Both the position numbers and the translations under genes were made by a program. A stretch of 62,936 nucleotides of DNA, filler included, from Reclinomonas americana ATCC 50394 (lineage: Eukaryota), in the NCBI GenBank assembly GCA_048213135.1. It is 16 parts of 16 records of this genome, joined end to end, with 100 filler letters (N's around TTAATTAATTAA, not from the genome) between each part and the next. Parts side by side here need not be neighbours in the genome. Positions count along the whole stretch, not along the records: positions 1 to 4,836 come from AFZH01019150.1; 15 more parts are not named here. One strand, 5' to 3'. Shown piece after piece: positions 570-26,938 of this stretch (the stretch's first letter is position 1; the number at the start of each line of letters is the position of its first letter). A model generated the notes under the pieces. It did not search any database and was not told where the DNA came from. It saw only the letters and a program-made list of their open reading frames with translations.

Positions 570-1282
570 CTCGGATGCGGTCACGGACTCGCCGGGATCA
601 TGGCCCTCCACGATGGATGGGTATCGCGCATGGATTTTGCCGATTATGCTTCGTCTCACCCCCGTCCTCTCCTTTACGTGCATTCACTCGCTCACTCGCG
701 ACAGTGCAGAACTCGGAGGTGCTGGAGAACGTGACGGCGCGCAACGTGGTGCTCAACTGCGGTGCCAATGCGATGCGACGGTGTCGCTTCTTCGCCGGTG
801 ACTGGGAGTTCTTTTCGGTCAGAATCATCGCTTCTCTATACTGCTCCACTTCTCTCACTCATCTCGCACGTCACTGACAGGATGTGGTAAATCAGCGCTA
901 CGAGGGCGACGATGAGGAGGAGGGAGTGCCGTCGCCGGTGCTGTACGATCTGATCGTGTCGGGCGACACGTGCTACAATGTCGAGTCGATACCACGCCTG
1001 GTGCAGGTGCTGTGCAACCATCTGCGACCAGGCACCGGCCGCGCCATTGTGGCCTCCAAGATCTACTATTTTGGCGTGGGTGGCGGCACGCAAGGTTTTC
1101 TGCCTTCCCCGTCGTCGTCCTCTGAGAACACGACACTCACCGCCTCTCTCCATCCAACAGAATTCCGCGAGGCCGTCGCCGCCAGTCAAGTATTAACCGT
1201 GGCCGACTCGTACCGCGTCGAAGACGGCCTCTCCAACATTCGCGAGGTGCTGGTCGTAGCCACCACCGCCACCACAACGTAG
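570..1282 (+). CDS. METTL18: Histidine protein methyltransferase METTL18/Hpm1-like, 3' portion (4 visible exons; 5' end outside window)
   Basis: Spliced translation LGCGHGLAGI..DFADY|NSEVLENVT..FFAGDW..YDLIVSGDTCYN..ASKIYYFGVGGGTQ|EF..SNIREV carries the family motifs in order. Stop TAG at 1280-1282. Confidence 0.85.
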
Positions 1283-1303: not shown

Positions 1304-4200
1304 TTACACCAGTTTGTCAAACACCTCGGCCGCACTAATGCCGGTGGCATTCTGCCGTTCCAGCATAATGGTCTCCAGTCGCTCCATGTCCGTGGTAGCG
1401 AGTTCGTTGAATCGGGCGTCGATAATCACCAGTCGTGGATTGGCCACCACCGAATCCAGGAGCACGCTGCCGGCTGCGGGGAGAAAGAAAGGTCATTTTC
1501 AAGGGAGGTGTGATGAAAGGCAGGTGTCGCACGCAACTCCTGGCATCAATGGCGTTGCAGGAGACGTCGAGCGCGGTCAGCGAGTGGTTCGAGCGCAGCA
1601 CCTCGGCCAGCACCAGGGTTGTCTCCACGCCCAGGCCGGTGCCCTCGAGACTCAGCGTCTGCAGCTTGTGGTTGCTCTGCAATGGAGGAAGGGAGTAAGA
1701 AAAGAGAGGTAGGGGGGAATAGGAGAAGGAGAAGGGAGAATGGGGAACAGGAGAGGAAGAAACAGGGGGATGGCGTCGACAGAATCCTTCTTTTCGCCTC
1801 CACCCCTTCCCCTTTCCATCACCCACCTTCAACCCATTGACCACATGCAGTGCACCCTCCTCATGTAGCCGGTTGAGACGCAGCGAGAGACTCTCCAACG
1901 TGCTATTCTCCGCAATGGCACGACCCAAATGCTTGCTGCCTGATTTCCCAAAGGCGTTGTCGAACAGATTGAGATGTCTCAGGTGGCACTTGGCGGGCTG
2001 TCGCAACAGCGACGACAGTGCCTTGGCGCCGTCGTCTCCAATCTTATTGTGCGACAAGTCTACCAAGAGGTGTCAGCATGCGCACCAACTCCCTTTGCTC
2101 ATCTCCTACTTCTCCCCCCCACACTCACCCAACAACGTCACGCTGCTGTTCTTCACCAGGCCCGACAGGATGGCGCGCAGCTTCAAATCGTCAATCATGT
2201 TCTCGCACAGCTTGAGCTCGCGCAGCGTGTTGTTGGAGGAGAGCACGGCGGCGAGGTGCAGACAGTCCTGATTGTTGAGGCCAATGCCGCTCAACGAAAA
2301 GTCGGTGCCATACGACTGCGCACCGTAGGTGACGGAGACGCGCTCCAGTCGCGGCAGGCAGTGGAAGACGAGTCGAATGTCGAGGTGTGACTTGAGCTGG
2401 CGGCACGTGAGGTTGGTCACAATGCCGGCGGCCAGTTCGCAGTTTGCCCGGAAGCGATCCACGAAATCCGTCGCCACTTCGCCGCTCTGCTCCAAAAAGT
2501 CCTGCAGGTGCTTCTCCAGGTACAGCTGGCGAGGGGCGAAGAATGAGATAGGGACAGAGGGAAAAGGGGGTGGAATGGAGAGGGATGCACACCTTCTTCC
2601 AGTGCGTGGTCGGCGGCAACTGTCCCGACGGCCATCGACTCTCACAGCACCGCTTCCAGTACCGCTCGTCAGAGATGCGCGTGACTGTCAGCACCAGTGG
2701 CAAGTCCTGCAAAACAGAGGAGGGTAAGAGGGAGGGCGTCCGACAGGAGACGGGTGGCGGTGCTGCGCAACTGTGGACAAGTGCTCCGTGACCATCGCCG
2801 CACACTCCTCCGGCAAGTCGGCCAGCGTCGGCTGCTGCAAAAAGCTGGCGGCAATGCTCTTGGCGCACAGCAGCAGCAGCGGCGGTACAAAGTACGACGC
2901 GGTGCCATTTCGTCGGTATGCGTTGGGCGCCAGTGCACGCTGCAGCTCTTGCTCTTGCTGCGAGGGATGAGGGGGTGAGGGGGGTGCAAAACAAAGGGGA
3001 GATGGAGAGAGATAAAGAATGCACCTTCACAAATTGGTACATGAGCTTGACCTCGGATTGTGAGAGCTTGGCAGCCAGTGCCGCCTGCTGCTCGTTGAAT
3101 CTCCTCGACTGTGGGGGTGTGCGGAGAAAGTGAGCAGCGGCAAGGATGCGAAAAAGGAAAGAGACGGCTGTTCCACTCAACGTCACTGCGCAGCTCGCTG
3201 TGCTTCTTTCGCACATCGCGGAGTGGGTTGGAGATCTCGTGTGGTTCCTCGACGAACCAGTCTTCGGCGTTGCCGGCGGGACCACCGACGCCGGCGCTGC
3301 TGAGGCGGCCGCGGGTTTCTGGGAAGGAGGGAGAAGGGGTGAGGCGAAGGAGGAGAAGGAGGGAGAGGAGGTGAAGAGAGGGAGGTGAAGGGAGAGAGAG
3401 GGATAGGCAATGGAAGGGAGGAGAGAAAGAGAGAGAGGCAGTGATAGAGAGAAACACAAAGAGAGAGAAAGAGCGAGAGAAGAGAGACAGAAGAAGACGA
3501 ATAAGAAGAAGAAGAAAAGGAAGAAGAGGAGGAAGAGAGAGAGAGAGATGGTCAGAAGGAGAGAGAGAGACAACGATGCACACACAAAGAGAAAGAGTCA
3601 AGCGAAGAGAGACTCTTTGGTTCAAAGTATGTGGAGTGACACTGACTGACTGTCGCCGGTCATGAGAGATTGTCTAGTGAGTGCGCAAGTCGGTTGCTGC
3701 TCTATCGCTGTGCGGGGTGACAGAAACGCGCGTCTGCGCTCACTCGACTCTGTGTGTGTCTCTGTGATGCACACTGTTGACTCCAGTTTGTGTAACAAGC
3801 AAGGGACAGATTGTGGTTAAGAAAACTCTCGAATCTCTCAGTCTGGGGAACAAGCGAGAAACAACGCGCACATTCTCTACAAACAGGTGAGGGAAAAGCG
3901 TCCGTTATCAACACTGTGCGTGTTTGTCTGTCGCACTCTCCCCTGTTGCGATAGAAGTGACAAACAAGGCGAGCTAGCCAAGAGTGATGGTCTCGGATCA
4001 TGCAACGACACAAGGGCACACACATGGAGCGCTTGCCACTCGACTGCTGCTCAATTCCACAGATCTCTCCAGACAAACAGAAAACGTGCAGAACGAGGTA
4101 TCTCTCCTTGGCCCTGGATCAAACACTCACCAGGCAACAATGGCTCTGGCACCGGCGGCAACGGCGAACCCGCCTCCGGCAACACTGCATCCTCACTCAT
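1304..4200 (-). CDS. TCTE1: Dynein regulatory complex subunit 5 (TCTE1/DRC5), LRR protein, about 9 exons; N-terminal exons tentative
   Basis: Spliced VPPLLLLCAKSIAASF..HLST|DLPLVLTVTRISDERYWKRCCESRW..WKK|LYLEKHLQDFLE, then RNI-like LRRs (LKLCENMIDD, DLSHNKIGDDGA, LSLRLNRL). Stop TAA at 1304-1306. Confidence 0.85.
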
Positions 4201-4828: not shown

Positions 4829-4963
4829 CCTACCTANNNNNNNNNNNNNNNNNNNNNNNNNNNNNNNNNNNNNNNNNNNNTTAATTAATTAANNNNNNNN
4901 NNNNNNNNNNNNNNNNNNNNNNNNNNNNNNNNNNNNACGCTACTTGGTACGTCGTTTCTTCTG

Positions 4964-9148: not shown

Positions 9149-9992
9149 TCACACACTCCCTCACTCACTAACTCACTCTCTCTCACTCACTTATTCACTC
9201 ATACACACACTCACTCTCTCACACTCCCTCACTCACTAACTCAGTCGCTCACTCTCTCTCTCTCCGTCTCTCACTTACTCATACACATACTCCCTCACTC
9301 TCTCACTCACTCACTCGCACTCTCCTTCCCTTCTCATCAGTCGCTGTCAGTTTGCTGTGCTCTTCACACCCCTCCTCACTCTCCTCTTCCCTTTCACTTC
9401 TCTCTATCGCCTCTCCTTTCACTCCCTGTTCACTGTTCAATTTCGTTCATCCCATCCCCCGTGCCCGTAACACATAGATCCCAAGCGCAACGCACGGCCG
9501 ACAATTGGTTTCGACGACGCCAAGGTGTCGATCGATGATCGGTATCGCGTGACGTTTTCCGATGTGGGCGGCGGCAAGGCCATGCGCAAGACGTGGGGAC
9601 AGTATTTTCATGATGTTGCGTGTGGGGAGGATCATCTTCTCTCTCTCTCTCTTCTCTCTGGTTGTCCATGTGTTCATCCACCCTCGTCTTGGCTCGCTAA
9701 CACGCTCAGTCGCTCGCCGTCGCTCTCTTCCCTTCTTGATTCGCGGCGTGTGACGCCTGTCTCGTCTCTCGTCTCTCTCTCGTCTCTCTCATTCTCCCCC
9801 ATCTGTTCTTCTTCTTCTTCTCCTTCTTCTGCTCTTCCTTCTTCTTGTTCTTGTCTTCTTCTTCTTCTTTCTTTCTCTCTCTCTCTCCTTTTCCTTGCGC
9901 GAAGTAGTTCACTCACACTCGCCCTCTCTTTTCTTCTTGATCGTCCGCGTTGTCTCGTCTCGTCTTTCCTCGTCTCGTCTCGTCTCGTCTCG

Positions 9993-10044
<52 letters not shown>

Positions 10045-10320
10045 CGTCCGTCCGTCCGTCCTCCGTCCTCCCCGTCCCCGTCTCCTCTCTCTCTCTCTCG
10101 TCTCGTACTCGTACGACGTACGACGTACGACGACGCGNNNNNNNNNNNNNNNNNNNNNNNNNNNNNNNNNNNNNNNNNNNNTTAATTAATTAANNNNNNN
10201 NNNNNNNNNNNNNNNNNNNNNNNNNNNNNNNNNNNNNGTAAGTTACGTTACTACCTACACCTACGTCCCGTCCCTCCTTTCTTTCTTTCGTTTACGTCGT
10301 CCGTCGTCGTCGTCTCGTCT

Positions 10321-14427: not shown

Positions 14428-23526
<9,099 letters not shown>

Positions 23527-24628: not shown

Positions 24629-26938
24629 TCGTATGTGTTCCAGCAGACGATGATTGTTGCGTGCACCATTGACCCCGTCCCCCCTCTCTCCGTTGGCCTT
24701 TCTCCCTTGCTCCTCTCACCCGGTTGCCCTTTCTGCGTACTTGTCTCTCGATGTCCTTTCTCTTTCCGTTGCTCTCTCGTCTCTCTGTTGCCCTCCTTCT
24801 GTGTTGCTCAGTCCGTTGCTCTGTCCGTTGCTCTCTCTCCGTTGGTCCCAATCTCCGTTCCTCGCTTGTCTCTCTACGTTGCCCTCTCCGTTCCTCTCTC
24901 TCTTCTCTCTTCGTTGCCCTGCCGCTGTTGCCCCACTTTACGTTGGCCCAATCTCCATCGGCCTTTCTCCGTTGCTCCTCTCTCCCGGTTGCCCTTTCTG
25001 CGTACTTGTCTCTCCACGTCCTTTCTCTTTCCGTTGCTCTCTCTTTTGTCCGTTGCCCTCCTTCTGTGGTGCTCTCCGTTGCCCTCTCCGTTGCTCTCTC
25101 TCTCTCCGTTGTTTCCAATCTCCGTTCCTCTCTCGTCTCTCTCCGTTGCACCACTTTCCGTTGCCTGCCTCTGTGTTCCCTCTCCCCGTCGCCACTCTCT
25201 CCGTTGACCACTTCATCCGTTTCCGCACTCCATTTCTCTTGCTCCCTTTTTCTGTCTCCCTTCTCTCCGCTGCCCCACTCTTGTTTGCCGCAGTCTCCGT
25301 TTCGCCATTCTCAGTTGCTCTCTCTGCGTTTCACCAATCTCCGTTACCCTCTCTCCGTTTCCCCTCTCCGATGTCCACTCTACGTTGCTCTCTCTCCATT
25401 TCCCCACTCTCCGTTTCCCTTCCCCGCCTATCTCACTCCCCCTCCCCTTTCCCCATTCTTGCCTTGCAGCGTGTCACGAACGGCGAGCGCAGCGTGGACT
25501 TTTACACGCGCATCCTCGGCATGACGCTGGTGGTGCGTCGCCACGCGCGCAAGTCTTTCGCCTCCTTGAATTCACTTCCACCTGCAGGAGAAACTCGACT
25601 TTGAGGCCGCGCGCTTCTCGCTGTACTTTGTGGCGTACTGCGACCCGGCCGAGATTCCCGCCGACGACGCCGAGCGCAAGAAGTGGTTCCACTGGCGACC
25701 GGGTGCGCTGGAGCTGACCTACAACTGGGATGAGGAGGTGAGTAGAGAGGGAAAGACAGCAGGAGTTCTCTTCCTTCTTTTATTCTTTCCCTGCTGCGCT
25801 GATTACGAAGATGGGTGCGAAGACACCCATTGCTCTGTCTTATCTTGCTCTCTTTGGCCTGCGCTCCTGCCGCACGTCAATGTTTTGTTTTCTCTTCTCT
25901 TTCTCTCTCATTTGTTCACCGTTCTCTAAACATTCTCGCTACCTTTCTGTCTGACTTGCGCTCTCATTTCTGTTGCTCTTCTTTGGCGTTGTCACTCACG
26001 TTCTCGCGCTCCTGGTCTCTTTAGATGTCACTGTTGTCTTCACTTTCTCCTCTCTCTTCCACACTCGCTTAGCTCTTGTTCTTCTCGTGCTCATTTTTGT
26101 CTTTTCACTTCCGTTCTCGCGTTGCGGTCGCACTCACTCCTCATTTCGATGTTGTTGTCCTCATTCCTCTCCCTTCTGCCCTCTTCATTCCTCAACTCTC
26201 TCTCTCTCTCTCTCACTCACTCATCGTTTCACCAGGTGTACCACAACGGCAACGAGCCGGGCAACCGCGGCTTTGGGTGCGTCTCTCATTCTCGCCACAC
26301 GCTCCCTTTTCGTGCTTACTCACCCATGACTCGCTCGCAGTCACATTGGTTTGTAGATGTCCCCCTCTCGCGTTGTGCATGCTGTTCACATGCTCCCTCG
26401 TGTTCTATCCTGCATACATCAGGCATCAAAGTCCCTGGTACGATACTCGCGCGTCTCTCTCGTCCAACTTTCGTGAACTCACTCCGTGCTCGTATTTGCA
26501 GATGTTAACAAGGCGGTGCGCTCCACCGTTGCCCCTTCTCCCCTCTTTCCCTCTCTCACACATCGCTCGTGCATGCAGTGCGAGCGCTTCGAGGCCCTCG
26601 GCGTGCAGTTCCAGAAGCGCCCGGAGGAAGGTTTGTGAAGCCAGCCATGAGTTTTGTGTCCTCAGCCGCTAAACCTCCCTTGTGCAGGCCGCATGAAGCA
26701 CCTGGCTTTCGTTGCGTGCACTTTCTGCGCTGTCGCTCCTCTCTGTCACTCACATCACATGTGTCCCGCTCACAGATCAAGGACCCCGATGGTGAGTCAC
26801 GCACACACAAATAACCAATTTGAAGTCTTCAAGTCGCTCATCCCTCGCATCGCACAGGCTACTGGATCGAGAGTTGTGCCCCTCCATCTCCTTACTCACA
26901 CCATAATCACGCTAACCCTTCGCATCACAGTCTTCTAA
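24629..26938 (+). CDS. GLO1: Glyoxalase I (lactoylglutathione lyase), at least 12 exons including microexons; start lies in the gap
   Basis: Spliced SYVFQQTMI|RV..SVDFYTRILGMTL..FSLYF..LELTYNW..YHNGN..RGFG|HI|GIKVP|DVNKA|CERFEALGVQFQKRPEE|GRMKHLAF|IKDPD|GYWIE|IF-TAA. All four metal ligands (Q, E, H, E) are present. Confidence 0.95.

Follow-up and report, generated by a model that had tools for sequence, protein, structure and literature searches.

The window analysed here, a stretch of 62,936 nucleotides from Reclinomonas americana ATCC 50394 (assembly GCA_048213135.1), has a G+C content of ~55% and comprises 16 contigs joined by linkers. All 15 linkers, beginning with the one at 4837–4936, are alike: two blocks of 44 N flank a 12-base word that carries stop codons in each of the six frames. 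The contigs appear to be ordered, since one Arf-like gene seems to extend from one side of the gap at 10138–10237 to the other. Another observation on the window concerns the heptamers GTACGTA/TACGTAC, for which 23 occurrences were counted on both strands against 1.3 expected, an over-representation of 18 times.

The first contig carries, on its plus strand, the 3′ part of a methyltransferase-like gene. The first visible exon (570–647) encodes a SAM-binding GxGxG motif and a strand that ends with D-Y, the tyrosine codon being at 645–647, and an AG lies directly upstream of it at 568–569. It is followed, in our preferred reading, by intron 1 (648–709, 62 nt), which has a GC donor and an AG acceptor, and by exon 2 of the visible gene part (710–817), which opens with the asparagine of a D-Y-N motif. 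Intron 2 (818–880, 63 nt) has the donor g|GTCAGAA and is the sole GT–AG join between its anchors; its exact borders fall in a variable loop and are not fixable by the protein profile described below. Exon 3 (881–1094) is separated from the last exon (1161–1279), which is closed by the stop codon at 1280–1282, by intron 3 (1095–1160, 66 nt, in frame and stop-free) with the weak donor g|GTTTTCT. The profile supports the removal of intron 3, the spliced form scoring 199.6 bits versus 184.9 bits for the unspliced one, and its retention would add 22 residues to the protein. A minus-strand LRR_6 (RNI-like) gene converges on the methyltransferase-like gene, with the two stop codons only ~20–25 nt apart (1280–1340), so that the 3′ UTRs of the two genes must overlap.

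Protein searches have been employed to assign the gene to a family. The search over 1.84 billion protein representatives gave 564 matches at E up to 0.001, and a profile was built from 83 relatives of 220–420 residues taken from the best 150 of those matches. The exon at 570–647, contained in the frame-0 ORF 495–731, matches profile positions 137–167; exon 2 covers positions 167–205, starting at residue 223 of ORF 44–874, which corresponds to base 710; and ORF 878–1279, in which exon 3 lies, matches positions 213–300. The sole match in the PDB was human METTL18 (4rfq_A, E 3.3e-6). Exon 3 matches this chain and exon 2 shows a weak local match to it from N139, while PDB searches with short exon pieces were blank or weak. 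Pfam Methyltransf_16 gave 17.6 bits with the window's 133-residue piece, below the cut-off of 21, and was above the cut-off in all five relatives that were scanned. By its sequence, the gene looks like that of a METTL18/Hpm1-like protein-histidine methyltransferase. It has in common with METTL18/Hpm1 (Pfam Methyltransf_16; PDB 4rfq) the GxGxG motif, the D-Y-N stretch and a C-terminal YYFGVGGG-like block, and it differs in that the window holds only ~176 C-terminal residues. The nearest relatives are identical to it at no more than 56% of residues, in alignments of partial length. Proteins of the source organism were not found in the protein collections searched, further homologous-protein searches gave no match, and a metagenome locus returned by a related-DNA search was set aside, as it is not a homologue.

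The N-terminal 136 profile positions of the family find no match anywhere in the window, and the missing block may lie beyond its left end. The region before the first visible exon holds ~19 tandem copies of a 15-nt unit (120–385 on the plus strand), which is pyrimidine-rich on the gene strand. This repeat and further pyrimidine-rich sequence upstream are probably part of a long preceding intron running off the left end.

At the end of the first visible exon the sequence reads tat|GCTTCGT, with the GC at 648–649 and AGs at 703–704 and 708–709, in agreement with the preliminary description of this DNA. Codons of the upstream exon start at positions divisible by 3 up to its terminal D-Y (645–647), and the downstream N at 710 is in another frame. 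As the two exons are in different frames, the length of the intron must be 2 mod 3, which fits the 62 nt of 648–709. The two AGs are 5 nt apart and, with the donor at 648, only that at 708–709 restores the frame; use of the AG at 703–704 would shift it. The GT at 653–654, correctly dismissed earlier, offers no in-frame join, since it would give 52 nt with 704 and 57 nt with 709. The further claim that the motif D-Y|N forces a GC donor holds by homology, which places 648–709 best (see below), but fails by the DNA sequence taken alone, because in-frame GT joins exist that had been overlooked. These start at 621 (with 709, 718 or 727), at 664 (with 704) and at 678 (with 709, 718 or 727), the AGs at 718 and 727 lying inside exon 2.

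The protein family provides the principal evidence on the junction. The two raw ORFs, each matched to the profile independently, meet exactly between its positions 166 and 167, corresponding to bases 647|710 (Y at 645–647 and N at 710–712), and base 647 is the endpoint of many tblastn matches. Removal of 648–709 leaves a continuous conserved reading frame, and the full candidate protein scores 200.3 bits against the profile, compared with 160.0 bits for the unspliced reading from the ATG at 494. When every in-frame, stop-free pair with a start in 625–675 and an end in 685–730 was scanned for all dinucleotides, 648/709 came first with 199.6 bits, the next pairs scored 195.2 and 194.7 bits, and none of the near-best junctions had AG at its end. 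The 15 introns mapped in the window are 55, 61, 63, 63, 64, 65, 66, 66, 66, 66, 67, 68, 69, 73 and 150 nt long, and the 62 nt of 648–709 falls within the 55–73 nt range of 14 of them. With GC as its first and AG as its last dinucleotide, 648–709 has the ends of a GC–AG intron, and by comparison with the family this is the best-supported reading of the locus and probably the correct one.

The motifs of U12-type introns are the donor RTATCCTT and the branch box TCCTTAAC; neither was found in 648–709 and a U12-type reading was rejected on this ground. The motifs TTCAC (683–687) and CTCAC (691–695), read on the plus strand, are candidate branch sites of the intron. They resemble the CTNAC-like motifs that other acceptors have 15–30 nt upstream.

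Shifted donors form a class in the window, with the consensus H|GTTGCGT and the looser form GTTNCGY, and they stand after exons without a final G. Counted on both strands, GTTGCGT occurs 22 times against 8.9 expected, a number reached by 0 of 100 shuffles, and GTTGAGT is seen 12 times against 5.5 expected. Examples of GTTGCGT are found at 9615(+), 10775(+), 26711(+), 37613(+), 62175(+), 1537(−), 15988(−) and 18069(−). By eye, ~14 of the 22 sites terminate sequence that looks coding, and downstream of them come a pyrimidine-rich stretch and, 45–75 nt away, CAG/TAG; 3 of these ~14 plausible sites follow G, as judged by eye without a frame check. At least three GTTGCGT sites do not look donor-like, two of them being in the 3′-terminal part of introns while others precede purine-rich sequence.

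Individual members of the class were mapped by hand between coordinate anchors. The GTTGCGT at 1537(−) is the sole GT donor that joins its two exons (64 nt), the GTTGCGC at 19160(−) is likewise a sole GT donor (66 nt), and the GTTGAGT at 3181(−) is one of two GT donors (73 nt). The minus-strand intron at 19533–19597 (65 nt) has the donor a|GTTTCGT, the GT twin of GCTTCGT. This donor at 19597(−) is the sole GT/GC donor between its anchors, the only other join listed being one that would make a 26-nt intron. The hand-mapped set, which is neither exhaustive nor selection-free, has G before the donor in 11 of 11 canonical cases and a base other than G (a, c or t) in 8 of 8 shifted cases. Four of these shifted donors were fixed or narrowed by frame logic and four were placed by eye, namely those at 9615, 10775, 26711 and 18069(−). 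The canonical donors are of the GTGAGT-, GTGCGT-, GTGCGG-, GTGCGC-, GTGGGT-, GTGCAT- and GTCAG-type, together with GTTTGCT and GTTTTCT.

Several routes to an automatic intron catalogue were tried and rejected. Open-frame filters were without discrimination, a self-trained codon model came to favour low-complexity purine-rich sequence, coding scores of flanks and interiors could not tell GT from decoy dinucleotides, and filters on composition and branch motif were swamped by pyrimidine tracts. The Pfam search with 150 ORFs was nearly blank. A glyoxalase I gene was also encountered, the exon 25582–25755 of which is backed by PDB matches; at 26711–26800 (+) this gene has, by eye, an apparent 16-nt micro-exon between GTTGCGT and GTGAGT donors.

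The donor of 648–709 fits the shifted class and not the canonical register, as originally proposed. Like the H|GTTGCGT donors of this genome, it follows an exon that does not end with G (T at 647), it has T at +3, C at +5, G at +6 and a pyrimidine, T, at +7, and it opens an intron of ~60–70 nt. Unlike them, it has C instead of T at +2, the base at 649, and it has at +4 the less common T rather than the commoner G, so that GCTTCGT is the pattern GTTNCGY save for its second base. Where the donor consensus of animals and plants has G at −1, R at +3 and G at +5, the bases here are T, T and C, and when read in the canonical register GCTTCGT shows no match from +3 to +6. Judged from these positions, the GC donor, which follows an exon without a final G, is plausibly a shifted-class donor with C in place of T at +2.

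Inspection by eye of the 97 GCTNCGY sites in the window found no second GC donor of this type to be forced. Two candidates for a second GC donor were discarded, as that at 17819(−) has a canonical g|GTGCGG in frame (66 nt) and that at 16820(−) sits within an intron starting with g|GTGCGC. Three anchor pairs that seemed to allow only GC turned out to be artefacts of anchors running into introns; two of them have canonical g|GT donors and the third probably uses a GT donor.

We put at roughly 0.7 the probability that 648–709 is a genuine U2-type GC–AG intron with a donor from the abundant second, shifted class of this genome. Donors of this class would carry the usual motif (G|GTGCGT or G|GTGAGT) one base deeper in the intron. 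With the textbook 5′ end of U1, the first G of the intron would then pair where the last G of the exon normally pairs, +3, +6 and +7 would take the pairing places of +2, +5 and +6, and +2 would come opposite a C, with which neither U nor C can pair. Recognition by U1 would thus not suffer from a C at +2, which would have to be tolerated only in the subsequent catalysis; the catalytic steps of splicing accept GC.

A search of the window against Rfam gave no match, neither to U1 nor to another snRNA, and the pairing counts were made with the U1 5′ end as printed in the excerpted text of Tan et al. 2016 (PMC4856993). For GCTTCGT, the +1-shifted helix has 4 pairs (+1 G, +3 U, +6 G and +7 U), the helix with +2 bulged has the same 4, and the canonical helix has 1. 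The shift and the bulge give equal numbers of pairs and, therefore, the two registers are indistinguishable here. The suggestion of the preliminary description that +2 may be bulged or dispensable in the shifted class follows a sound logic, as +2 stays unpaired, be it U or C, with the shift as with the bulge, but it is inferred from one site; the U1 register, the branch site and the splicing of 648–709 in this manner are likewise inferred. That only the shifted register accommodates this GC donor yields a simple, testable prediction on the donor positions that U1 reads in an organism with routine shifted donors, for which one site is insufficient. It is doubtful that the shifted class as such frees +2 from pairing with U1, with GC and other dinucleotides tolerated without a compensating consensus. 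If this were true, GC donors, and perhaps others, would be several times commoner in the shifted than in the canonical class, and the class would be a natural experiment separating the needs of U1 recognition at +2 from those of catalysis.

It is possible, though unlikely, that the GC–AG intron is real and its likeness to the shifted class coincidental, in which case short introns here would be recognized mainly through intron definition and by U5/U6, with little need for U1 pairing in any register. The donor of intron 3, GTTTTCT, pairs poorly in any register, and as this intron is supported by homology, U1 pairing may matter less than assumed; since this GT donor is very weak, weak donors seem to be tolerated generally. 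The argument from the shifted class rests, moreover, on a single case, and GCTTCGT is not enriched in the window (8 seen against 8.5 expected). Coincidence would, however, have to produce a joint match at −1, +3, +5, +6 and +7, which is expected for ~1% of GC sites. GCTNCGY makes up 97 of the 9358 GC sites on both strands, a proportion (1.04%) that was computed post hoc, and a random GC would therefore seldom resemble a shifted donor so closely. The association of the −1 base with the type of donor in the hand-mapped set also argues that the register matters in this genome.

Use of another junction (621–709, 664–704 or 678–709), or a locus that is a decaying or truncated copy, is improbable. 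All three joins are GT–AG and in frame, but their full candidate proteins fall 14–20 bits below that of 648–709 against the profile, with 186.0 bits for 664–704, 184.5 bits for 678–709 and 180.3 bits for 621–709. The competing in-frame GT donor at 621–627 (+), g|GTATCGC, follows G and could form four contiguous canonical pairs with the textbook U1, while the join over 89 nt to the AG at 709 costs 9 residues including D-Y and deletes the strand with the conserved acidic residue. The joins 664–704 and 678–709 insert 7–10 residues by way of introns of 41 and 32 nt, shorter than the 55-nt minimum of the 15 mapped introns. The window lacks the 5′ exons, as would be the case with a truncated copy, but those exons that are present are open and resemble the family from end to end, giving no hint of decay. 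A minor or even a major isoform may use the donor at 621 or the AG at 704. With 648–709 as the preferred junction, the last alternative concerns the base itself: that the true base at 649 is T, whether because of a mistake in base calling or assembly or because of a strain polymorphism, which would make the donor an ordinary GT–AG shifted one, is very improbable. Although GTTTCGT does serve as a donor elsewhere in the window and 15 linker-filled gaps in 63 kb suggest an assembly of draft quality, the estimated rate of consensus substitution errors per base is far below the share of GC–AG introns, ~1% in most eukaryotes, and the other exons of the gene showed no signs of error such as frameshifts.

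The GC–AG reading of 648–709 has consequences for gene finding. Programs restricted to GT–AG introns, or those that admit GC donors only with a strong consensus, would mis-predict this gene. The ATG at 494 opens a frame that runs stop-free through intron 1 into exon 2 (494–817, +), and a GT–AG-only program would probably call a false N-terminus from it and lose the SAM-binding motif. The wider phenomenon of shifted donors is more notable than the single GC case.

GC–AG introns are, to our knowledge, the main non-canonical intron class everywhere. GC donors of animals and plants usually have a strong consensus at the other positions, and the rule of a near-perfect U1 match stems from those groups. 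Like ordinary U2-type GC–AG introns, 648–709 has GC and AG ends, no U12-type boxes and a short length similar to that of its neighbours, and its removal restores a conserved protein; unlike the ordinary GC donors of animals and plants, it has T at −1 and nothing that matches the canonical register from +3 to +6. Roca and Krainer are said to have described in 2009 human 5′ splice sites to which U1 pairs either in a register shifted by +1 or with +2/+3 bulged. The excerpted text of Tan et al. 2016 (PMC4856993) gives the share of GC–AG as ~0.9% of human 5′ splice sites, and an excerpt of a second report (PMC7072748) gives <1% in model organisms. The same text of Tan et al. lists 68 sites predicted to bulge at +2/+3 and 9 GC sites in which +2 takes part in a loop, treats such bulge registers and +2 loops at GC sites as predicted or validated, and puts the human U1 registers with experimental backing at ~1.5% of sites. 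The literature search on GC–AG introns, U1 and bulged sites, which was not species-specific, found no such protist class described, and a species-level report could exist; the donor heptamer gave only primer-like matches in the literature. The new part is plausibly, as far as the sequence of this locus goes, a naturally occurring donor with GC that belongs to the shifted class, itself common in this genome, which is a small advance. As in the human shifted or bulged U1 sites of the excerpted report, the motif lies one base deeper while cleavage would still occur before the first G; unlike those human sites, which are rarities in that text, the shifted form here, known from its sequence, is common and GC appears as its natural variant.
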